From Escherichia coli (GTDB lineage: Bacteria > Pseudomonadota > Gammaproteobacteria > Enterobacterales > Enterobacteriaceae), in NCBI RefSeq assembly GCF_022846255.1, contig NZ_AP025682.1: a stretch of DNA of 64,000 nucleotides; one strand, given 5' to 3'. Positions 1-58,704 of this stretch are shown one piece after another (within the stretch, counting starts at the first letter, position 1; every line of letters starts with the position of its first letter). The notes beneath the pieces were generated by a model. The model was not told the DNA's origin. It was given only the letters and a program-made list of their open reading frames with translations, and did no database searches. The position numbers and the translations under genes were made by a program.

Positions 1-134
1 GATGGTACTGGCAACGTTGCCGGGCTAAATATCTCTGTTGCAACCGGCGTTTTGCTTGGTGAATGGTGGCGTCAGAATAAAGCCTGATAAATCAGCCGGG
101 TGGCAACGCTGCCATCCGGCGTTTTCCTGCAAAT

Positions 135-3170: not shown

Positions 3171-4505
3171 TTACTCTTCTGTCGTTTGCGGTGGCACGCC
3201 CGTTCCGCTCGGTTTACGGCGCTTACCAATATTTTTGGTGTCGCGATGGCGTTTTTTCACCCGCGGCTTATCTTTCTCTTTAGCTTTTTTCTTCTCGGCG
3301 CGTTTAGCCAGTACTTTCTTCGATGGCTTGCCGGTCTGCTTCTCGCTTGGCGCACGCGTTTTCGGGCGTAACTCATCAATTACACGAGCTTTAATTGGCT
3401 CTTCAATATAGCGACCAACTTTGCCCAGCAGCAGATGGTCATGGGCTTCTACCAGCGAAATTGCGGTGCCTTTACGACCGGCGCGCGCGGTACGTCCGAT
3501 ACGGTGCAAATAAGTATCGCCACTGCGCGGCATATCGAAGTTAAAGACGTGGCTGACGTCAGGAATGTCGATACCGCGCGCGGCAACATCGGTTGCAACC
3601 AGTACGTTTACGCGACCTTCGGTCAAACGCTTGATCGCTTCGTTACGCTTGCCCTGTACCATCTCACCTTCGAGATAGCAGTTGTTGATGCCCGCTTCGC
3701 GCAGCCAGTTTGCCAGCTCATGCACACGCTCACGCTTACGCACAAACACAATTGAGCGGGTCGCTTCCGGCTGTTTTAACAGGTGCACCAGCAATGCGGT
3801 TTTATGTTCCAGGTCATCGGCGCGGTAATACCACTGATGAATTTTTTTGCGCTCACGGGTGGACGGATTGGCAGAAACCTCCACCGGATCTTCCAGCAGA
3901 CGCTCGGCAAAGTCCTGAATCGCATCGCCTTCCAGCGTTGCCGAAAAGAGCAGGGTCTGTTTACGCCAGCGCGTTTCGCCAGCAATATGTTCGATATCCT
4001 GAGCGAAGCCCATATCCAGCATACGGTCTGCTTCGTCGAGGATCAGCGTTTCAACCGCGCGGCAATCGAAGTTCTCTTCTTTTATGTATTGCAGCAGACG
4101 TCCGGTCGTGGCGACCACAATGTCCTGGTTTTCGCTGAACACTTCTGCGTGGTTCATATAGGCCACGCCGCCGGTGATGGTGGCGATATCCAGATGCGTA
4201 TGTTTCGCCAGTTCGCGGGCATGATCGGCCACCTGCATCGCCAGCTCGCGAGTTGGGGTGAGGATCAAAATACGCGGCGGACCGGATTTCTTACGTGGGA
4301 AATCGAGCAGGTGCTGCAACGCTGGCAGCAGATACGCCGCCGTTTTACCGGTGCCTGTCGGCGCAGAACCGAGTACATCACGGCCATCGAGCGCAGGCGG
4401 AATGGCGGCAGCCTGAATGGCGGTCGGGCGAGTGAAACCTTTATCCTGGAGGGCTTCCAGCAGGCTTTCGTCGAGTTCAAGTTCGGAAAAAGTCGTTACA
4501 GTCAT
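3171..4505 (-). CDS. srmB: ATP-dependent DEAD-box RNA helicase SrmB
   Basis: 444 aa; APTGTGKT Walker A, DEAD box ([14 protein letters not shown]), basic C-terminal tail. Confidence 0.95.
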
Positions 4506-4636
4506 GTTCTACCTCTGTGTGGGGCGCTGATTATAGACGTTACGGCTGCAATCTTCATCTGTTTGTATGGATATCGCTTCTCGGGTATTGTTCTCACCCG
4601 GTGCTATCGCCGTTTTTCCTGCAAGGTTTTATTTTC

Positions 4637-7005
<2,369 letters not shown>

Positions 7006-20955: not shown

Positions 20956-20989
20956 AACAACAAAAGGCCAATTTAGGCCTTTTGTTGTT
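20956..20989 (-). terminator. 14-bp perfect hairpin between the 305-aa cargo gene and the helicase gene
   Basis: AACAACAAAAGGCC / GGCCTTTTGTTGTT with loop AATTTA; 3' arm is U-rich on the minus-strand transcript. Confidence 0.45.
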
Positions 20990-21002
20990 TTAAAAATGTT
21001 AT

Positions 21003-21920
21003 TTATAATAGTGCTGTTACTATTGCATCTTTAAAAATATTTTCTTCTTCATTTATTAAAGGTGATGACAGATGAATAATTACTTCTTTTCCTGTCAATA
21101 CTATTTGCTCGACTTGAAATCCTGCGTTGTGTAGTCTTTGGCGTAACTTTTCTAGTGCTGATTTTGATATACTAAATCCTTCACTCCTTATAGTATAACT
21201 GGCAACTCCATTTTTAATAATATCTACAGAGTTGTCAATTTCCTGCTGCGAGTAATTTTTCGGTGAGTCGAAAAATCTGGATTTTGTCGTTGCTGTTGCC
21301 CTAAGAGATATCAATAATGATTTGATATCTTTAATCTCAGATGCCAGATACTCAGTTTCTGATACTTCTTTCTGGTCTAGTTGTGCAACTTTGAAAGTGC
21401 CAAAATGTTTGAGGAATGTTGTGTATTCAGGATCAGTTACTGACTTTAAATATGTTTCTTTTATCTTGCTCGCAAGTCTTTCTTTGAATAAATTGATTGA
21501 TTGGTATCTTAAATCCGAAGGGTACTCTAAATGTTCAATTGATGAAATGTCAAAGCTATAAGGAGTGCGCTCGTCCTTAATAATTACGGTCGGTTTGTCA
21601 AATGCGAGACGCATTCCTAATTCAAACATTACATTAGCGTTTCGAGCACTTATATCGCAAACAACTATGGGGTTTTCATAAAGATTTTGAACAATTCGTT
21701 TTTGTATTACTGCAACATCATCATCTGAACTTACCAAATTTGCCTTGAATCCGGCATCATTTGATGCTTCACAAATAATGTCATGAACATTTCTCCAATG
21801 TCCAGTGGGATAACCTTCTATGTCCGCAATTGGCATAATAATGCCGCATATATGAGGTGGCATATTTTTGTTGTCTTTTACATCATCTTGGTTTATTTCT
21901 TTCGTTTGTTGCTTAGCCAT
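21003..21920 (-). CDS. hypothetical cargo protein with N-terminal TIR-like/NDT-like domain
   Basis: 305 aa; motifs ICGIIMPI, PIVVCDIS and RNANVMFELGMRLAFDKPTVII resemble the beta-strand and NV-x-FELG core of the 253-aa protein; AT-rich by eye. Confidence 0.35.
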   Translation of the reverse strand: MAKQQTKEINQDDVKDNKNMPPHICGIIMPIADIEGYPTGHWRNVHDIICEASNDAGFKANLVSSDDDVAVIQKRIVQNLYENPIVVCDISARNANVMFELGMRLAFDKPTVIIKDERTPYSFDISSIEHLEYPSDLRYQSINLFKERLASKIKETYLKSVTDPEYTTFLKHFGTFKVAQLDQKEVSETEYLASEIKDIKSLLISLRATATTKSRFFDSPKNYSQQEIDNSVDIIKNGVASYTIRSEGFSISKSALEKLRQRLHNAGFQVEQIVLTGKEVIIHLSSPLINEEENIFKDAIVTALL

Positions 21921-34217: not shown

Positions 34218-34640
34218 ATGCGTAATATTCAACAGGTTTTAGAGCGCTGGGGTGGCTGGGCAGCGAGTGAAGGTGGTAGCGTCTACTTTCCTCCTGTTGC
34301 AGCCGGGTTTAAGAATCTGCTACCCGCGACGCAGTCTGGAAGGCTGAAATGCAGTGACAATGACGGTCTTATCATCAACTCCGCTATGAGCTGCCTGAAG
34401 AAAAAAGATCCGTATCTGTGCACGCTCCTTGAGTGGCATTACGTCCAGGCCATGCCCGTGCGGGCGATGGGTGAGAAGCTCGGCGTATCTCACACCCACG
34501 TTCTGAAGAGGCTTCAGGCGGCAGAGGGATTTATTGACGGTTGCTTAGCCATGCTGGATGTGGTGCTCGAAATGGATCAGTCGGTTCAGTCAAAGCCTCA
34601 GGCGATCAGGACTTTGCGTAGGAGCTGCTCGGCGGCATAA
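34218..34640 (+). CDS. late-gene antiterminator Q (QuuQ-like)
   Basis: 140 aa; MRNIQQVLERWGGWAA... resembles lambdoid Q as recalled; lies upstream of the lysis cassette. Confidence 0.75.
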   Translation: MRNIQQVLERWGGWAASEGGSVYFPPVAAGFKNLLPATQSGRLKCSDNDGLIINSAMSCLKKKDPYLCTLLEWHYVQAMPVRAMGEKLGVSHTHVLKRLQAAEGFIDGCLAMLDVVLEMDQSVQSKPQAIRTLRRSCSAA

Positions 34641-35104: not shown

Positions 35105-35334
35105 ATTGCCCCATTCTGGGGAAAAGTTAATAAAACAGGGCTTTCGCTGCGAAAAAACGCTATGCAGTTTTTGCCCTTTTTTATGCACCTTTTATTCACT
35201 CGAATTTCGTCATTCTGGACCACTTAAGTTGATTAAATAGGCCTTTCATCGCAAATCTATTGCGAGCGGGGATCGTGTGGTTCCTATAACGTACATTATG
35301 TTAAATCACCTTCTTTTTTAACAAATTTAACAAG

Positions 35335-35357
35335 GTTCGCTATGGCGAACTTTTTTT
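35335..35357 (+). terminator. rho-independent terminator upstream of the holin (candidate tR')
   Basis: Perfect GTTCGC / GCGAAC stem with loop TATG followed by T7; position analogous to the lambda 6S RNA terminator. Confidence 0.6.
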
Positions 35358-35458
35358 GTATTCAGGGCCCACCGAAGGACGGCTCATAACCCAATCCTAC
35401 GGGCGTATACGCAGGGCCCGCCTTTCAACAACACCCCGTAATGGCGGAGGTGGGAAGT

Positions 35459-35800
35459 ATGAAAATGCACAATGCTCCTCATTCCTGGCCTGACTTACTG
35501 GAACTCTTACAAAGTTGGTGGCGTGGAGATACGCCGTTGGGCGCAGTGGTTATGTCAATTGTTATGGCTGGTTTGCGCATTGCCTATTTTGGCGGTGGCG
35601 GCGGCTGGAAACGAAAAACGCTTGAGATTTTGCTCTGTGGTGCTCTGACGCTGACCTTTGCATCCGCTCTTGAGTATGTTGGATGGCCTAAATCGCTTTC
35701 TGTTGCCATTGGTGGCGGCGTTGGGCTGATCGGTGTCGATGCTATTCGTGGGGCTGCAATGCGAGTAATCGGTAACAAATTTGGTAGCTCGAAGGAGTAA
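35459..35800 (+). CDS. holin
   Basis: 113 aa from MKMHN... with dual-start M-K-M motif, GGAGG Shine-Dalgarno and hydrophobic segments; precedes the endolysin. Confidence 0.7.
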   Translation: MKMHNAPHSWPDLLELLQSWWRGDTPLGAVVMSIVMAGLRIAYFGGGGGWKRKTLEILLCGALTLTFASALEYVGWPKSLSVAIGGGVGLIGVDAIRGAAMRVIGNKFGSSKE

Positions 35801-48149: not shown

Positions 48150-50159
48150 TTGAGAAATGGAGAGAGGATAATGAACGCTGAAACTATTAAAGATTTCCTC
48201 GTCTCGCTTGGCTTCAGTGTGGATGATGCAGGAGCGAAAAAGTTCGGTTCTGTCCTCGCCGGTACAACTGCAAATGTCATCAAAATGGGGCTGGCCGTTG
48301 AAGGAGCCGCGCTGTCCGTGGTGGCCTTCACGGCTAAGATCGCCTCCGGTCTGGATAATCTTTACTGGGCGTCACAGCGCACTGGAGCGACAGTCCAGGG
48401 AATTCAGTCTATTGGCTATGCGGTTTCGCAGGTTGGCGGCAGCGTGGACGCTGCGCGATCTTCTCTGGAAAGCCTCTCCCGGTTTATTCGTAATAATCCC
48501 GGTGCAGAGGGATTTCTGAATCGCCTGGGGGTACAGACACGGGATGCCAGCGGTAACATGCGTGACATGGCCGCTATTTTTACAGGTGTAGGCCAGAAGC
48601 TCAGCGGCATGCCGTATTACCGGGCTAACCAGTATGCGCAGATGCTGGGCATTGACGAAAATACCCTTATGGCGATGCGTCGGGGTGTGGGTGGTTTCTC
48701 CGGGCAGTACAGCGCAATGGCGAAAGCTATCGGCTTCAATGCTGACGAGGCGGCCAGAAGCTCCAACAAATTTATGACCTCCCTGCGTGAGTTTAGCGCG
48801 ATGGCAGGCATGGCCCGTGACAAAATCGGCTCTAATCTTGCGGGTGGACTTGCGGGGTCGCTGGACACCCTGCGCCGCCATATCCTGGACAACTTCCCGC
48901 GCATCGAGCAGACTCTGACGAAAGCCATAAAAGGCATTCTGGCGCTCGGGGATATTATCGGGCGGCTGTTCTTCAGACTGATTGAGGGGACATCAGGCCT
49001 TATCACCTGGTGGCAATCGCTGGATAAGCAAACGCGGGAGTTGATCTCGCTGTTTGGCGCACTGACGATTGCGCTGCGCATTCTGAACAGTACGTTCTGG
49101 ATGTCGCCGATTGGCCTCATTACCGCGCTGGCGGCGGGGATTGCCCTCCTGTGGGAGGACTATCAGACCTGGAAGGAAGGCGGCGACAGCCTGATTGACT
49201 GGGGCAAGTGGAAACCGGAGGTCGATGCCGCGCTGAAGATGGTTCGTGACCTTAAAACGACCGTTAACGACCTGGCGAAAGCGCTGGCGAAACTACTCAA
49301 TATTGACCCCAAATCATGGTCCCTGAAGTGGGATTTCAGCAACTTCATCGACCAGATGGGCGAATTCAGCAAAATGCTGAACATGATCGCCGACCTGCTC
49401 AACGCTATCAAAGATGGCCGCTGGGCTGATGCCGTCAGCATCGGCAAACAGATACTTAATCAGGGCAGCGAAAATCCGTCAGCGATGCCGATGGTTACAG
49501 ACAGCGCTAACAGTACTGCCGACTGGATTAAAGAGCACTGGGGATTCGATCCCCGCAGTGTGGGCCGAACGGTACGCGGCTGGTTTGGTGATGATGAGCC
49601 GGAACAACATGCACAGGCTACGAAACGAGGAGAACGGAATAACAATCCGGGAAACCTTAATTTTGCTGGTCAGGCGGGGGCTTCTCTTGAACGCCCGGGC
49701 GGGCGATTTGCCAGATTCGAAACTGCCTTTGATGGATTACGGGCTCTTGCTCGTCAGTTAATGTTGTACGCCGGACGTGGAATAAACAGCGTGGAGAAAA
49801 TTATCTCTACCTGGGCGCCTGCGTCTGATAATAACAACACAACTGCGTATATCAGGGCTGTATCGCAACGACTGGGAGTGGATCCCCGGGCTGCCCTGAA
49901 TATGAGCGATCCGCAAACCATGTCAGCATTGATGAGCAGCATTATCCAGCATGAAAATGGAAGAAATATCTATTCTCAAGAGCTGATTAATAAGGCTGCC
50001 GTGGCGGGAATTAGTGGCAAAGTGACAGAGGTTAACCAGCAAAATACCTACCACATTTACGGTGGCGGAGATCCGCACGTTGTCGGTAATGAGGTTGCAC
50101 GTCGGCAACAGTCTGCAAATGCTCAGGTCATGCGAAGTAATCAGGTGAGGGTGAGTTAG
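48150..50159 (+). CDS. tail tape-measure protein
   Basis: 669 aa, helical with hydrophobic segments; largest tail-module gene. Confidence 0.6.
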   Translation: MRNGERIMNAETIKDFLVSLGFSVDDAGAKKFGSVLAGTTANVIKMGLAVEGAALSVVAFTAKIASGLDNLYWASQRTGATVQGIQSIGYAVSQVGGSVDAARSSLESLSRFIRNNPGAEGFLNRLGVQTRDASGNMRDMAAIFTGVGQKLSGMPYYRANQYAQMLGIDENTLMAMRRGVGGFSGQYSAMAKAIGFNADEAARSSNKFMTSLREFSAMAGMARDKIGSNLAGGLAGSLDTLRRHILDNFPRIEQTLTKAIKGILALGDIIGRLFFRLIEGTSGLITWWQSLDKQTRELISLFGALTIALRILNSTFWMSPIGLITALAAGIALLWEDYQTWKEGGDSLIDWGKWKPEVDAALKMVRDLKTTVNDLAKALAKLLNIDPKSWSLKWDFSNFIDQMGEFSKMLNMIADLLNAIKDGRWADAVSIGKQILNQGSENPSAMPMVTDSANSTADWIKEHWGFDPRSVGRTVRGWFGDDEPEQHAQATKRGERNNNPGNLNFAGQAGASLERPGGRFARFETAFDGLRALARQLMLYAGRGINSVEKIISTWAPASDNNNTTAYIRAVSQRLGVDPRAALNMSDPQTMSALMSSIIQHENGRNIYSQELINKAAVAGISGKVTEVNQQNTYHIYGGGDPHVVGNEVARRQQSANAQVMRSNQVRVS

Positions 50160-51050: not shown

Positions 51051-52112
51051 ATGTCACAGAACTGGATGAGACATTTCGAGCTGCAGCTTGTGGACGGGAA
51101 CGGTCAGGGAATTGAGCTAAGTGATTTCAAAGTCACCTTTACGATCGACTGGTTCAACATCAGCAGCGCGTCCCGGGTAGGGACTATCAAAATTTATAAC
51201 CTTTCGGCAGATACTGTGAACCGAATTACCGGGCAGGAGTTTTCGAAAGTGCGTCTGATTGCGGGTTACGACGGTATCGCGCCGGAGGTGTCGGCAAGCG
51301 ACGTCGGGACAGTGCGGGAAGTTGACGCGGCGGACGTGGGCCAGAGTGATGGTCGCAACTACGGACTGATTTTCAGCGGTGAAATTCGCTACTCGGTCAC
51401 AGGAAAAGACAGTCCGGTTGATTCCTACGTCCTGATTCAGGCAGCAGATACTGATCTGGCTTTTGCCACCAGTATAACCTCACAGACGCTGGCTGCCGGT
51501 TACACGGTCGCTGATGTGAACCGTGCGCTGATGAAAGACTTCGAAGCCAAAGGTGTGACCGAAGGCCTGACGCCTGAAATGCCTGCTACTGTATTCCCCC
51601 GGGGGCGGGTGCTCTTTGGCATGACGCGGCATCTAATGGATAACGTAGCCGGGCAATGTGGCGCAACATGGCAATTCGTGGACGGTCAGCGCCAGATGGT
51701 GGCGACTAATGAATATGTTCACGAAGCGATTGTGCTCAACAGTGCTACCGGGCTTATTGGCATGCCGCAGCAGACCATCGGCAACGGCGTAAACGTCCGC
51801 GCTCTTATTAATCCGAACATCCGGGTTAACGGGCTCATTCAGCTGGATCAGGCTTCCGTCTATCGTACCGCGTTGTCGAACAACGATATTGCGATGGCTG
51901 GTGGTCAGATCACCGACCAGAACACGGACGGAAATATCACGCTCAGCGGCACCACATCGCAGCCTGCCAGCATCGCAACGGATGGAGTTTATATTGTGCG
52001 CGGGATTATGTACAGTGGCGATACAAGGGGCCAGGCGTGGTACATGGATATGATGTGCGAAGCGCGTGGCGCGGCGGATCTGTATACGCAATCGGCTTTG
52101 CAAAGGGGATGA
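51051..52112 (+). CDS. baseplate/tail protein (putative)
   Basis: 353 aa; position. Confidence 0.4.
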   Translation: MSQNWMRHFELQLVDGNGQGIELSDFKVTFTIDWFNISSASRVGTIKIYNLSADTVNRITGQEFSKVRLIAGYDGIAPEVSASDVGTVREVDAADVGQSDGRNYGLIFSGEIRYSVTGKDSPVDSYVLIQAADTDLAFATSITSQTLAAGYTVADVNRALMKDFEAKGVTEGLTPEMPATVFPRGRVLFGMTRHLMDNVAGQCGATWQFVDGQRQMVATNEYVHEAIVLNSATGLIGMPQQTIGNGVNVRALINPNIRVNGLIQLDQASVYRTALSNNDIAMAGGQITDQNTDGNITLSGTTSQPASIATDGVYIVRGIMYSGDTRGQAWYMDMMCEARGAADLYTQSALQRG

Positions 52113-52115
52113 GCA

Positions 52116-52457
52116 ATGAGGGGTATTATTTTTCTGTTAGCTGTCTTTTCTGCGTGCAGCGCGTGGGCGGATGGCTTCACGGTTAAATGCGGTGGCTACA
52201 CTATGGTTGCAAACCAGGGCGAGTTATCGACAATCAACGGTGAAAGAGTTACCTCTCAAAAAATCACCGAACTGGGTACCAATGGTTTGAAAGTAGACAT
52301 GGGGCTTATGCCTGCCAAAGACGGTAACAACTACGGCTTTGAATACATTCGTCGCCCTGGTACCGAAACGCGATTCCTGAATGTCCAACTGCTGCAGAAC
52401 AGCATGGATGCGCCGAAAATCATCGGTTCCTTTCCATGCAAAAAGATTGTTGATTAA
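52116..52457 (+). CDS. secreted small protein / possible lipoprotein (cargo)
   Basis: 113 aa; N-terminal signal sequence MRGIIFLLAVFSACSAWA; inserted between baseplate genes. Confidence 0.45.
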   Translation: MRGIIFLLAVFSACSAWADGFTVKCGGYTMVANQGELSTINGERVTSQKITELGTNGLKVDMGLMPAKDGNNYGFEYIRRPGTETRFLNVQLLQNSMDAPKIIGSFPCKKIVD

Positions 52458-52474
52458 TCACTCGTAATTATAAT
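52447..52474 (+). promoter_or_regulatory. candidate sigma-70 promoter for the 79-aa membrane-protein gene
   Basis: TTGTTG, 16 bp, perfect TATAAT; about 37 bp upstream of the ATG at 52511. Confidence 0.45.
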
Positions 52475-52510
52475 GTGGTACTTCTACTTTCACGATAAGG
52501 AATTTGTCGC

Positions 52511-52750
52511 ATGTTCGGATTTGATAAATTAATAACTCCAAAAATCATCAACGTTCTGTATGGCATCACAATGTTACTTCTGGTTGTTGCCGCCATTATA
52601 ACGTTTGTTAATGGGAAGGCTGCTGGCGCTTTAGTGCTTTTGTTATGTGCTGTATTTTGCCGAATATTCTTTGAGTGCATCATGGTTTCATTTAAAAACA
52701 ATGAGTATCTTCGCCGAATAGCTGAAGCGTTAGAAGCAAACAAGCAGTAA
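52511..52750 (+). CDS. small two-helix membrane protein (cargo cassette)
   Basis: 79 aa with two hydrophobic helices; own promoter and terminator; AT-rich. Confidence 0.5.
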   Translation: MFGFDKLITPKIINVLYGITMLLLVVAAIITFVNGKAAGALVLLLCAVFCRIFFECIMVSFKNNEYLRRIAEALEANKQ

Positions 52751-52766
52751 TGAAACTTCAATAATG

Positions 52767-52790
52767 AACCCGCCACCCGGCGGGTTTTTT
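52767..52790 (+). terminator. rho-independent terminator after the membrane-protein gene
   Basis: CCCGCC / GGCGGG stem with loop ACCC followed by T6. Confidence 0.65.
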
Positions 52791-52809
52791 GCTTTCTGGA
52801 GCCTACTAA

Positions 52810-53562
52810 ATGGCAGTATCTGACCAGACCCGCAGCGGCGACCTTGCCGAAACATTCAAATCTGAACGGGAAACAACAAAGAACCAGATCCGTGTCGCCT
52901 TGCCTGGCATTGTTCAGTCATTCGATCCCGACGCGGTGACGGCGGTTGTGCAGCCAGCTATCCGTTCGGTTGAAAAGGATAACGACGGTAACCGCATTAC
53001 CAAAAATTACCCGTTGCTGGTGGATGTGCCAGTGGTATTTCCGCGCGGCGGAGGCTGTACGTTGACTTTTCCGGTTAAAGCCGGGGATGAGTGTCTTGTC
53101 GTTTTTGCCGATCGTTGTATTGATTTCTGGTGGCAGAGCGGTGGGATACAGGAGCCGGTCGATGACAGAATGCATGATTTATCGGATGCGTTTTGTATTG
53201 CCGGTCCCCAGTCGCAGGCGAGGAAGATTAGCGGTATTAATACCAGTGCCACACAGTTGCGTAGTGACGACGGCAGCACCTATTTTGAGCTTAATCCTGA
53301 TACCCGGAAAATTAAAATTGTCGCCCCGGGTGGTCTTGATGTGGTTGCCCCTCTGGCTGATTTTTCTGAGAAAGTAACCATTCATGGCCTATTAACCTGG
53401 ATGGGGGGCATGGTGGGGTCTGTTGTTTCTGGTGTGGCTTCAAAAATCACTGGTGCTGTTGAGTTCTTGGGGAGCGTTAAGGCTAACGGCAAGCCAATCG
53501 ATGATACGCACACTCATGGCGGTGTTCAGCGCGGTGGAAGCAATACCGATGGGGTAAACTGA
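52810..53562 (+). CDS. baseplate central spike protein (gpV-like)
   Basis: 250 aa; C-terminal HTHGGVQRGG motif typical of V-type spikes. Confidence 0.55.
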   Translation: MAVSDQTRSGDLAETFKSERETTKNQIRVALPGIVQSFDPDAVTAVVQPAIRSVEKDNDGNRITKNYPLLVDVPVVFPRGGGCTLTFPVKAGDECLVVFADRCIDFWWQSGGIQEPVDDRMHDLSDAFCIAGPQSQARKISGINTSATQLRSDDGSTYFELNPDTRKIKIVAPGGLDVVAPLADFSEKVTIHGLLTWMGGMVGSVVSGVASKITGAVEFLGSVKANGKPIDDTHTHGGVQRGGSNTDGVN

Positions 53563-56609: not shown

Positions 56610-57211
56610 TGGATAAAGCCGTATTAAATAGCGAACTTATTGCCACGAAGGCGGGGAATATTACCGTCTATAACTATGATGGTGAAACACGGGAATATAT
56701 TTCCACTTCAAATGAATATCTTGCCGTTGGTGTCGGTATCCCGGCATATTCCTGTTTAGATGCTCCTGGCACATATAAGGCTGGTTATGCAATCTGCCGT
56801 TCAGTAGATTTAAACTCATGGGAATATATGCCAGACCATCGCGGTGAAATTATCTATAGCACCGAAACAGGAGAAGCAAAAGAAATCACAGCTCCGGGTG
56901 ATTACCCTGAAAATACAACCACTATCGTCCCGTTAACGCCATATGATAAATGGGATGGTGAGAAATGGGTGACAGATTCTGAGGCACAACACGGTGCCGC
57001 AGTAGAAGCGGCAGAAGCACAGCGCCAGTCACTGATTGATGCAGCAATGGCTTCCATCGGTCTGATTCAGCTGAAATTACAGGCCGGACGGAAGCTGATG
57101 CAGGCAGAAACAACCCGGCTTAACGCTGTGCTGGATTACATTGACGCGGTGACGGCAACAAATACCAGCACAGCGCCGGATGTCATCTGGCCTGAACTGC
57201 CGGAGGCGTAG
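56609..57211 (+). CDS. tail fibre assembly protein (U-like)
   Basis: 200 aa; C-terminal TSTAPDVIWPELPEA-type motif. Confidence 0.65.
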   Translation: MDKAVLNSELIATKAGNITVYNYDGETREYISTSNEYLAVGVGIPAYSCLDAPGTYKAGYAICRSVDLNSWEYMPDHRGEIIYSTETGEAKEITAPGDYPENTTTIVPLTPYDKWDGEKWVTDSEAQHGAAVEAAEAQRQSLIDAAMASIGLIQLKLQAGRKLMQAETTRLNAVLDYIDAVTATNTSTAPDVIWPELPEA

Positions 57212-57626
57212 GCCATTCAATATCTGGCGCACAGGAAGTATCGACCAGTTCCAGTGCGTCCAGATAATCCAGCCATAAATTATATTGCTCCAGCTCGTTA
57301 CCTTTCAGACGACCAATAGCAGCTTTGCCAGGCCACTGATGGGTATTGATGTAAGTATTGGCTTCTGAAACCAAAGATATTTTTTTCATTTCAGCCATCA
57401 ACACCTCATCCTCTTTTGAAGGCGGTGGGGAATTAATCCATATTGGCCGTCCTGAACTGTCAGCGCCAATTTCTTTCCCTTCTGGATGCAGCCCAAGAAA
57501 TTGCTCATATGTTTCTCGGGTAATTTCAATAACATCATCTGGAAGCGTTCCCGCATCCTCATATTCTGGAAACAATTCTTGTAGATAAAAACTTTTACTT
57601 CCGGGTGAAAAGAATACTGAGTTCAT
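57183..57626 (-). CDS. alternative tail fibre assembly protein (U'-like)
   Basis: 147 aa on the opposite strand; C-terminus TSCAPDIEWPTPPAVQAR paralogous to the plus-strand gene. Confidence 0.6.
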   Translation of the reverse strand: MNSVFFSPGSKSFYLQELFPEYEDAGTLPDDVIEITRETYEQFLGLHPEGKEIGADSSGRPIWINSPPPSKEDEVLMAEMKKISLVSEANTYINTHQWPGKAAIGRLKGNELEQYNLWLDYLDALELVDTSCAPDIEWPTPPAVQAR

Positions 57627-57628
57627 TA

Positions 57629-58123
57629 TTACCGTCCAATGATTAACGCTGAGACGCTGGTATCTGAAGGAAAGGCTGCATTCAGTGGTTTGTCGACTTT
57701 GAACACAATCGTATTATTCCCCCTGACAGCGGCAAAAGAACAAACCGCAGTCGCGTATGAACCTGTAATATTACTGGATACACCACCATAAGCTGTTGTT
57801 GATACCAGAGGGATAACGCCCAGCACCTTATTAGGAAATACAAAGGGCAATGTGGCTGTGGCAATATAAGACTTATTAGAGCCTGTGATGGCATAAGCAT
57901 TATCAGTCATTCCATTCATCGCCACCGGGCCGCTTATACTTACAGTAACCATCTGAATGATTAGCCCGTCAGGTTGACGAATCACAAAATTTCCATTGCC
58001 ACCAGTAACCGTCCAGAAAGACATATCAGGGATTTGGTTTTCCCCGTTGCCCACATTCCGTTTTGCCGCTTCTCCCAAACCAACGTTTATGAAAATGCAG
58101 AAATAACGAGCAAATGGCATCAT
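57629..58123 (-). CDS. alternative tail fibre variable C-terminal segment (Sv'-like)
   Basis: Minus-strand ORF whose 5' end (..INVGLGEAAK) spans the right crossover site; expressed only after inversion fuses it to the constant fibre N-terminus. Confidence 0.55.
   Translation of the reverse strand: MMPFARYFCIFINVGLGEAAKRNVGNGENQIPDMSFWTVTGGNGNFVIRQPDGLIIQMVTVSISGPVAMNGMTDNAYAITGSNKSYIATATLPFVFPNKVLGVIPLVSTTAYGGVSSNITGSYATAVCSFAAVRGNNTIVFKVDKPLNAAFPSDTSVSALIIGR
58069..58083. repeat. right crossover site of the invertible segment
   Basis: CTTCTCCCAAACCAA, reverse complement of 56128..56142; about 67 bp upstream of the invertase start. Confidence 0.6.
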
Positions 58124-58149
58124 TCCTGCTTTTGTCAGGGAGATCTACC

Positions 58150-58704
58150 ATGCTTATTGGCTATGTACGCGTATCAACAAATGACCAGAATACCGATCTA
58201 CAACGTAATGCGTTGAACTGTGCAGGATGCGAGCTGATTTTTGAAGACAAGATAAGCGGTACAAAGTCCGAAAGGCCGGGACTGAAAAAACTGCTCAGGA
58301 CATTATCGGCAGGTGACACTCTGGTTGTCTGGAAGCTGGATCGGCTGGGGCGTAGTATGCGGCATCTGGTCATTCTGGTTGAGGAGTTGCGCGAACGTGG
58401 CGTTAATTTTCGCAGCCTGACGGATGCTATTGATACCAGCACACCGATGGGGCGTTTTTTCTTTCATGTGATGGGGGCCCTGGCTGAAATGGAACGAGAA
58501 CTGATTGTTGAACGAACAAAAGCTGGACTGGAAGCTGCTCGCGCACAGGGACGAATTGGTGGACGTCGTCCCAAACTTACACCAGAACAATGGGCGCAGG
58601 CCGGGCGACTAATTGCATCAGGAGTTCCTCGCCAGAAGGTGGCGATCATTTATGATGTTGGCGTATCGACTTTGTATAAGAAGTTTCCGGTCGGAGATAA
58701 ATGA
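58150..58704 (+). CDS. serine DNA invertase (Gin/Pin/Hin family)
   Basis: 184 aa from MLIGYVRVSTNDQNTDLQRNAL...; closely resembles Mu Gin as recalled; the ORF-track start at 58114 is an upstream in-frame ATG. Confidence 0.85.
   Translation: MLIGYVRVSTNDQNTDLQRNALNCAGCELIFEDKISGTKSERPGLKKLLRTLSAGDTLVVWKLDRLGRSMRHLVILVEELRERGVNFRSLTDAIDTSTPMGRFFFHVMGALAEMERELIVERTKAGLEAARAQGRIGGRRPKLTPEQWAQAGRLIASGVPRQKVAIIYDVGVSTLYKKFPVGDK

Follow-up and report, generated by a model that had tools for sequence, protein, structure and literature searches.

A 64,000-nt stretch of Escherichia coli DNA (contig NZ_AP025682.1; below, the window means this whole stretch) contains a prophage in whose tail operon two small genes stand between those for the baseplate hub and the spike. 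Our best explanation, to which we assign a probability of about 0.6, is that they occupy a two-position accessory site, which lies in the Q-antiterminated late operon of an E. coli prophage that is SEN34-like (Brunovirus-type). The gene for a 113-residue periplasmic β-barrel, read within that operon, would fill position 1 immediately behind the hub gene. Position 2 would hold a moron of low guanine-cytosine (GC) content, a DUF4282 gene that brings its own sigma-70 promoter and ribosome-binding site, and a terminator belonging to the phage backbone would close the slot. What the sequences show directly is how the site is built, that its two genes are independent of each other, that the slot varies, that terminator and promoter elements are conserved and that the DUF4282 gene is under strong purifying selection. 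The site comprises:

51051..52112, plus strand: baseplate hub gene, 353 residues, left flank of the site; phrog_196, expectation value (E) 5e-89; conserved in all related loci
52116..52457, plus strand: position 1 gene, 113-residue exported protein; phrog_3443; starts 3 nt past the hub stop codon
52447..52474, plus strand: sigma-70-type promoter candidate; -35 TTGTTG at 52447..52452, 16-nt spacer, -10 TATAAT at 52469..52474
52497..52501, plus strand: Shine-Dalgarno sequence AAGGA, 9 nt before the ATG of the 79-residue gene; invariant in the alignment
52511..52750, plus strand: position 2 cargo, 79-residue DUF4282 protein, a predicted inner-membrane helical hairpin; PF14110; phrog_12129; RefSeq uses the family name
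52766..52793, plus strand: intrinsic terminator closing the slot; stem ACCCGCC/GGCGGGT, loop ACCC, T-run
52810..53562, plus strand: spike (gpV-like) baseplate gene, 250 residues, right flank; weak match to TIGR01644 phage_P2_V, PF18352 on homologues

A preliminary description of this region had seen two small genes interrupting the baseplate genes, and the open reading frames (ORFs) at 52116..52457 and 52511..52750 do lie between hub and spike. It had also joined them into one cargo cassette, a claim that fails on comparison with relatives. The GenBank relatives compared were Yersinia phage YP3, E. coli phage vB_EcoM-689R2 and its relatives, Salmonella phage SEN34 and Klebsiella phage Mulock. 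DUF4282 is dispensable for virions, because the isolated phages YP3, 689R2, SEN34 and Mulock do not have it, each carrying a different gene in that place. In 113 loci from IMG/VR and GenBank, between 61 and 1844 nt separate the end of the 113-residue gene from the spike ATG. DNA clustering of 196 loci (some duplicate contigs included) resolved about 26 classes of cargo; two sites, L059 and L070, are empty, with 61-63 nt between the 113-residue gene and the spike gene. One class encodes a 409-residue protein that strongly matches the PD-Lambda-1 defence family (PADLOC E 1.4e-84; L083, L084 and L082, in the last at about 3429..4658). Most frequent among the others is a pair of proteins of about 250 and 130-142 residues; the second one has a RAYYxMYH (HEPN-like) motif and no database name, and several two-gene sets have such a second protein. 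Further cargoes include a weak YafO-like protein, a weak PycTM-like match and small membrane and secreted proteins. By these comparisons position 2 is a free, hypervariable cargo slot.

The same loci reveal that the two genes of the window assort independently and, as far as their distribution tells, are not one cassette. The 113-residue gene is paired with more than 20 different downstream cargoes, or with none, and three backbones share an identical DUF4282 cassette, which stands behind at least three different position 1 genes. In Hafnia a DUF4282 cassette immediately follows the hub gene. The 111-residue gene upstream of the cassette is chimeric in L087 and L115, with a homologous crossover inside the gene. 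L086-type phages have a hub of only 48% identity; their cassette comes after a divergent but complete 111-residue signal-peptide gene and is preceded by an approximately 80-nt remnant of the end of a window-type gene, carrying the TTGTTG -35 element.

Our first set of loci was chosen with the 113-residue protein itself and is circular for its presence, so a second set of 81 loci was selected with the hub. DUF4282 is found in 15 of these 81 relatives. A 113-like gene directly follows the hub in 72 of them, which corrects an initial statement that all relatives have it; the remaining nine carry an unrelated exported protein there, either a 241-residue lipoprotein or a 153/154-residue signal-peptide protein. 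Since every one of the 81 has an exported protein in this place, position 1 seems to be reserved for such proteins, usually but not always of the 113-residue family. The comparison with related phages that the preliminary description had proposed therefore separates its two genes: the 79-residue gene is missing or replaced, or the site is empty, as expected of an insert, whereas the 113-residue gene is present in 72/81. The description had named conservation in all relatives as virion proteins as evidence that would count against it; the conservation is found for the 113-residue gene, and the 79-residue gene is absent from isolated viable relatives.

Terminator and promoter of the cargo slot

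The preliminary description had placed a strong terminator after the second gene. A hairpin is indeed found there (52766..52787; 9-pair stem with six GC pairs, followed by a T-run; folding free energy -16.4 kcal/mol), and it ranks first among terminators in a scan of 46-60 kb, clearly beyond chance. It is, however, not the cassette's own. The arrangement ACCCGCC-loop-GGCGGGT, T-run and then the spike Shine-Dalgarno sequence is present in 44 of 46 distinct pre-spike sequences, both empty sites included; YP3 and L049, which lack the hairpin altogether, were left out of this set. Loop sequences differ (ACCC, ACTT, ATTC, TTCG and others), whereas the stem is preserved. The other two of the 46, L175 and L177, have a more distant backbone and read GGTCGCC-AATT-GGCGGCC, with two compensatory pairs and one wobble. 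Hairpin variants track the downstream backbone sequence, not the cargo. Almost all cargo classes, and the two empty sites too, come with this terminator; on this comparative evidence it is a backbone element.

Essential baseplate and fibre genes lie downstream, so late transcription must pass this terminator. It is established for lambda that Q-modified RNA polymerase ignores terminators. Read-through of the slot terminator here is probably Q-dependent in the same manner, and the presence of a Q gene in the prophage fits. During lysogeny a short transcript would run from the cassette promoter to the backbone terminator, which would stop cargo-promoter transcripts before the spike and baseplate genes; during lytic growth Q-modified polymerase would read through.

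The promoter candidate TTGTTG-16-TATAAT lies at 52447..52474, where the preliminary description had put it. Its -35 element overlaps the last codons of the 113-residue gene and matches the consensus in 3/6 positions only, which is why a consensus scanner missed the site. TTGnnn-16..18-TATAAT occurs at two sites in the 64-kb window (both strands) and was found in 0.4% of local 111-nt shuffles. More telling is the behavior of the element in related copies. The same-slot copies L174-L177, at 84-87% protein identity, have changes at 38-42 of about 55 synonymous sites, and their 5' untranslated region has many changes and an indel, yet TTGTTG, the 16-nt spacing, TATAAT and AAGGA are kept exactly. 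The Hafnia prophage copy has TTGATG-16-TAAAAT and the Erwinia chromosomal copy outside a prophage TTGCCG-16-TACAAT, both at the same distance to the ATG, the latter with its own terminator. DUF4282 copies between lysis and terminase genes have TTGAAA-17-TAAGAT 30 nt before the ATG. Judged by this pattern, the promoter element travels with the DUF4282 gene, also into a foreign backbone, and the motif at 52447..52474 is rather probably a functional promoter. It cannot serve the 113-residue gene, as it lies downstream of it. A scan for an antisense promoter in the cassette found none, and a minus-strand ORF at 52468..52776 (102 residues) was set aside as the unsupported antisense of the DUF4282 gene.

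Two further features of these motifs were noticed. Within the promoter spacer, the stop codon of the 113-residue gene is spanned by a perfect 10-bp palindrome, TGATTAATCA, at 52451..52460. The copies at 84-87% identity retain it, with a single change in L174 and L176, whereas the Erwinia chromosomal copy does not have it. Either chance or a role as a regulator site could account for it. At the other TTGnnn-16-TATAAT site of the window (20982..21009) the -35 is likewise TTGTTG. The surroundings are very rich in AT, the motif shares bases with the T-tract of a hairpin, AAAAGGCC-AATTT-AGGCCTTTT, and the part that aligns with the prophage of E. coli E62 lies about 11 kb further downstream.

The exported-protein position

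With its start only 3 nt after the hub stop codon, the 113-residue gene is part of the late operon, and no promoter-like elements were found upstream of it inside the hub gene. The signal sequence proposed in the preliminary description is borne out by an N-terminal signal peptide (about residues 1-18) with an A-x-A site, the likely cleavage being AWA|DG after residue 18. A18 and two cysteines are invariant in the family alignment. The mature protein is modeled as an all-β, 8-stranded barrel (AlphaFold2, AF2; mean predicted local distance difference test score, pLDDT, 80). The gene has a GC content of 47.1% and a ratio of nonsynonymous to synonymous substitution rates (dN/dS) of about 0.12. 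The signal peptide and the invariant cysteine pair point to export, not virion assembly, and the model suggests a periplasmic 8-stranded β-barrel made with the late genes.

No Pfam match was found for the protein, and fold comparison gave generic small-barrel matches alone; there was no PADLOC-DB 2.0 match at E <= 0.1, and an NCBIfam search yielded nothing useful. A lipoprotein assignment was rejected: Cys14 stands in a poor lipobox (FSAC) and is not conserved, while the A-x-A site is. The idea of a lysin inhibitor (PliC/MliC, Brucella PhiA, or T4 Spackle as a functional analogue) found no support.

A homologue directly follows the hub in the isolated phages YP3, 689R2, SEN34 and Mulock. Alleles of the gene are 62-100% identical on backbones that are 97-99% identical. 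They fall at discrete levels of about 98, 81, 76, 70 and 63% identity, with tape measure, hub and spike 97-99% identical (L001-L259). Discrete alleles on near-identical backbones point, at the level of these alignments, to allele exchange or diversifying selection at that gene alone. The genes that replace it lie at L226 3512..4237, L229 3668..4393, L224 3668..4129 and L174 1741..2205; the lipoprotein has the lipobox LTSC. In L064 the cargo (3350..3715) is a 121-residue signal-peptide protein, a distant paralogue of the 113-residue protein (26% identity, both cysteines kept), behind a normal copy.

The DUF4282 protein, its contexts and possible role

The 79-residue protein matches Pfam DUF4282 (PF14110) with E 6.8e-9, residues 2-71 aligning to model positions 2-85 of 86. 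It has two hydrophobic stretches, and AF2 places helices at residues 8-33 and 37-78 (pLDDT 85), so that the two-helix membrane protein of the preliminary description is also what the model predicts. The gene is AT-rich, as had been said: its GC content is 37.5% and that of the intergenic region 35.8%, compared with 54.5% in the hub gene and 51.8% in the spike gene, its two flanks. Against copies at 84-87% amino acid identity dN/dS is 0.04-0.07; the gene is under strong purifying selection. Invariant in the alignment are four residues close to the N-terminus (F4, T9, P10, Y17) and, where helix 2 ends, R51, E55 and the motif FKNNEYLRRI. Variation is found in helix 1, in the short NGKAAG loop and over the first part of helix 2. 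The predicted topology is N-in/C-in: by the positive-inside rule both ends are cytoplasmic, which places the conserved surface at the cytoplasmic face of the membrane. In Enterobacterales the family consists of stand-alone proteins of about 78-113 residues whose homologues carry PF14110; a profile search gave no domain fusions, all relatives being stand-alone. There is also a weak Pfam resemblance of the 79-residue protein to YbhQ.

DUF4282 genes occupy the same slot in prophages of E. coli, Pectobacterium, Erwinia and Hafnia. A second phage group (L122-L138, L147-L173) has the gene directly behind the tape-measure gene in 21 of 27 relatives and other cargo in six. Immediately ahead of the following gene, a conserved hairpin, AAAATCCCCTC...GGGGATTTTTTT, closes the slot in every case. 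This second slot lies between the tape-measure gene and a 204-residue baseplate gene (e.g. L147 2141..2503), and its other cargoes are small membrane proteins or 245-260-residue proteins. The gene also follows the tape measure in Klebsiella siphovirus-type prophages, and it is found between lysis and terminase genes, in Pantoea-type prophages just after the lysis genes. Overall, DUF4282 adjoins tape-measure, hub or spike genes in three different tail types. A homologue of 73% identity lies on an Erwinia chromosome (L178 4001..4240) between ATP_bind_3 and amino-acid permease genes, with no phage genes within 4 kb and with its own promoter-like motif and terminator.

The DUF4282 product would insert into the inner membrane. 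Tentatively, it may protect the lysogen there from an incoming phage by a block of genome entry like that of HK97 gp15, a guess that draws on the analogy with gp15, on the repeated placement of the gene beside tail-tip genes and on the defence genes among the cargo of the slot. In the same tentative spirit, DUF4282 may be an unrecognised phage inner-membrane family that blocks the genome entry of competing phages and sits beside membrane-crossing genes in at least three unrelated tail types. In SEN34-like phages a dock made of exported-protein gene, cargo slot and backbone terminator would then allow a lysogen to express its cargo without the baseplate genes.

Several observations weigh against the entry block or against expression from an own promoter. 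The conserved residues of DUF4282 face the cytoplasm and the periplasmic loop is short and variable; a conserved cytoplasmic face is not the first expectation for a protein that meets an incoming tail tip. BLASTP gave no alignment of the protein with HK97 gp15 at E <= 100. No PADLOC-DB 2.0 match was found at E <= 0.1, the NCBIfam search gave nothing useful, searches of the Protein Data Bank (PDB) by sequence and by fold found no solved DUF4282 relative, and a literature search on DUF4282, PF14110 and the RefSeq accessions found no paper. As to the promoter, the 9/12 consensus match (-35 3/6) is not significant alone (p about 0.09 for "best 9 of 12"). No convincing promoter was found at the same-slot copies in Pectobacterium and Erwinia rhapontici or at any copy directly after tape-measure genes; in those phages the protein is therefore probably made only with the late genes. 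Moreover, in the same slot DUF4282 has diverged to 65-68% identity across four genera, which suggests an old, phage-linked role rather than that of a casual passenger.

An unlikely alternative is that DUF4282 is a late-expressed, phage-linked accessory, with an inactive or marginal promoter motif and a hairpin that stabilises or attenuates late mRNA; in the lytic cycle it might act at the inner membrane, influence lysis timing or protect the infected cell. The long residence in one slot in four genera and the insignificance of the simple promoter score fit this. So do the two other phage groups in which the gene starts 10-60 nt after the tape measure with no promoter evident, and the Pantoea-type position next to the lysis genes. 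Class II holins have two transmembrane helices and a charged C-terminus, an architecture that DUF4282 resembles. On the other hand, holin, endolysin and spanin genes form a full set elsewhere in the prophage, viable isolated relatives lack the gene, and only 15/81 close relatives carry it. The promoter elements hold their position while synonymous sites are saturated, and the chromosomal Erwinia copy combines a promoter-like motif with its own terminator.

A membrane-acting toxin or abortive-infection effector, or a modulator of a host membrane protein (conversion), in place of an entry block, is improbable. The defence cargo that the slot holds in relatives (PD-Lambda-1 and the weak YafO-like, HEPN-like and PycTM-like proteins) would suit such a function. 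Invariant residues at the cytoplasmic membrane face would suit binding of a conserved host partner, and the chromosomal homologue outside prophages and the resemblance to YbhQ point the same way. It is opposed by the lack of a PADLOC match, of a partner, sensor or antitoxin gene in the cassette and of an antisense promoter in the scan. Least probable, and largely refuted by the comparative data, is that both genes form one imported cassette with its own promoter and terminator, a joint superinfection-exclusion or conversion unit: both products are envelope proteins encoded side by side, position 1 is itself replaceable and its alleles diverge on near-identical backbones, but the genes assort independently, the 113-residue gene stays at empty sites and with every other cargo, the terminator is common to all cargo classes and empty sites, and the promoter lies downstream of the 113-residue gene.

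If the two-position site and the entry block are real, DUF4282, a widespread Enterobacterales family of about 80 residues, gains a first testable role. The baseplate module of a common prophage group found in E. coli, Salmonella, Klebsiella, Erwinia, Pectobacterium and Hafnia would be a newly defined accessory and defence hotspot. It could be mined for new defence genes, as it already holds PD-Lambda-1 and several HEPN-like pairs. The design principle would be a conserved terminator in an antiterminated late operon that insulates interchangeable cargo, a layout repeated in an unrelated phage group.

Prophage setting and known systems

The prophage extends from about 32 kb to 58.6 kb of the window and is 97-98% identical to a prophage of E. 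coli E62, whose integration site adjoins yfhH/purL. The late genes are all on the plus strand. Control of the late region is lambdoid: a Q-family antiterminator gene and a terminator at the position of tR' are followed by holin, endolysin and spanin genes, head genes and a contractile-tail module of the SEN34/STY1053 type. The landmarks outside the accessory site are:

34218..34640, plus strand: Q-family antiterminator gene, head of the late operon; an ORF with 97% identity to E62, where RefSeq names it 'antiterminator Q family protein'
35332..35353, plus strand: tR'-like terminator between the Q and holin genes; 9-pair stem plus T-run in the scan
35441..35800: holin gene
48150..50159: tape measure, 669 residues, with C-terminal muralytic domain
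After the tape measure, in order: baseplate protein (195 residues), plug (100 residues), hub (353 residues)
After the spike, in order: gp25-like protein (117 residues), baseplate J (399 residues), fibre genes

Besides the slot terminator, 35332..35353 is the only strong plus-strand terminator of the late region, and its location, that of lambda tR', suggests a lambda-like late promoter and qut site just upstream. RefSeq names the spike a 'membrane-puncturing spike protein', and its Shine-Dalgarno sequence GGAG (52798..52801) comes directly after the slot terminator. The peptidoglycan-hydrolase domain of the tape measure (about residues 480-650) matches PHROG endolysin and tail-injection transglycosylase families, with Pfam SLT on homologues. 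An Rfam search of 51500..53500 returned just one spurious snoRNA match, below threshold. A 196-residue serine recombinase of the Pin/Gin/Cin type (58114..58704, plus strand) adjoins two minus-strand genes, 57183..57626 and 57629..58123, which resemble tail-fibre and fibre-assembly genes and face the plus-strand fibre genes. The segment 57183..58704 is probably an invertible host-range segment; at this place the E62 prophage is different, encoding a macro-domain protein and a serine acetyltransferase.

Among the known systems that come close are the morons, a concept defined on phages HK97 and HK022 (Juhala et al. 2000), according to the review PMC3594210. Like them, the 79-residue gene is inserted between genes that are adjacent in relatives, inside a late operon, with a deviating base composition (37.5% GC) and a terminator behind; the motif in front of it is a candidate for the promoter that a moron has there. 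The 113-residue gene is not part of that insert.

Another is the HK97 moron gp15, which the same review, citing Cumby et al. 2012, describes as an inner-membrane protein of superinfection exclusion. Gene 15 of HK97 has a terminator 12 nt before the next tail gene. In both cases a gene for a small inner-membrane protein (here predicted) lies in the tail operon by the genes of the membrane-crossing apparatus and is followed by a terminator, and in both there are chromosomal homologues outside prophages (YebO for gp15, L178 for DUF4282). They differ in that gp15 has 62 residues and one hydrophobic helix, whereas the DUF4282 protein has 79 residues and two helices. BLASTP found no sequence similarity to gp15, and the gene is not a member of the gp15/YebO family. 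It belongs to an uncharacterised Pfam family, as the full-length match and the RefSeq name indicate; the family name itself gives no mechanism.

As a hotspot, the site resembles those for defence genes in P2/P4 prophages and satellites (Rousset et al. 2022, cited in PMC11364771) and, as far as PMC11364771 treats them, moron loci that carry Tai systems. Lambdoid phages, too, are known to have hotspots of this kind for defence and accessory genes. A literature search found no description of the present baseplate-module slot. As in P2/P4-type hotspots, a fixed position between conserved genes holds many unrelated cargoes, among them the validated defence family PD-Lambda-1. Here, in contrast, baseplate genes of SEN34-like, myovirus-type tails surround the position, a conserved terminator closes it and an exported-protein gene precedes it. 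That terminator also marks the difference from the HK97/HK022 morons: it is not brought by the insert but is common to about 26 cargo classes and the empty sites. Because it is fixed in the backbone, the site would be a reusable dock rather than the scar of a one-off insertion, and the basic picture of phage morons is left unchanged.

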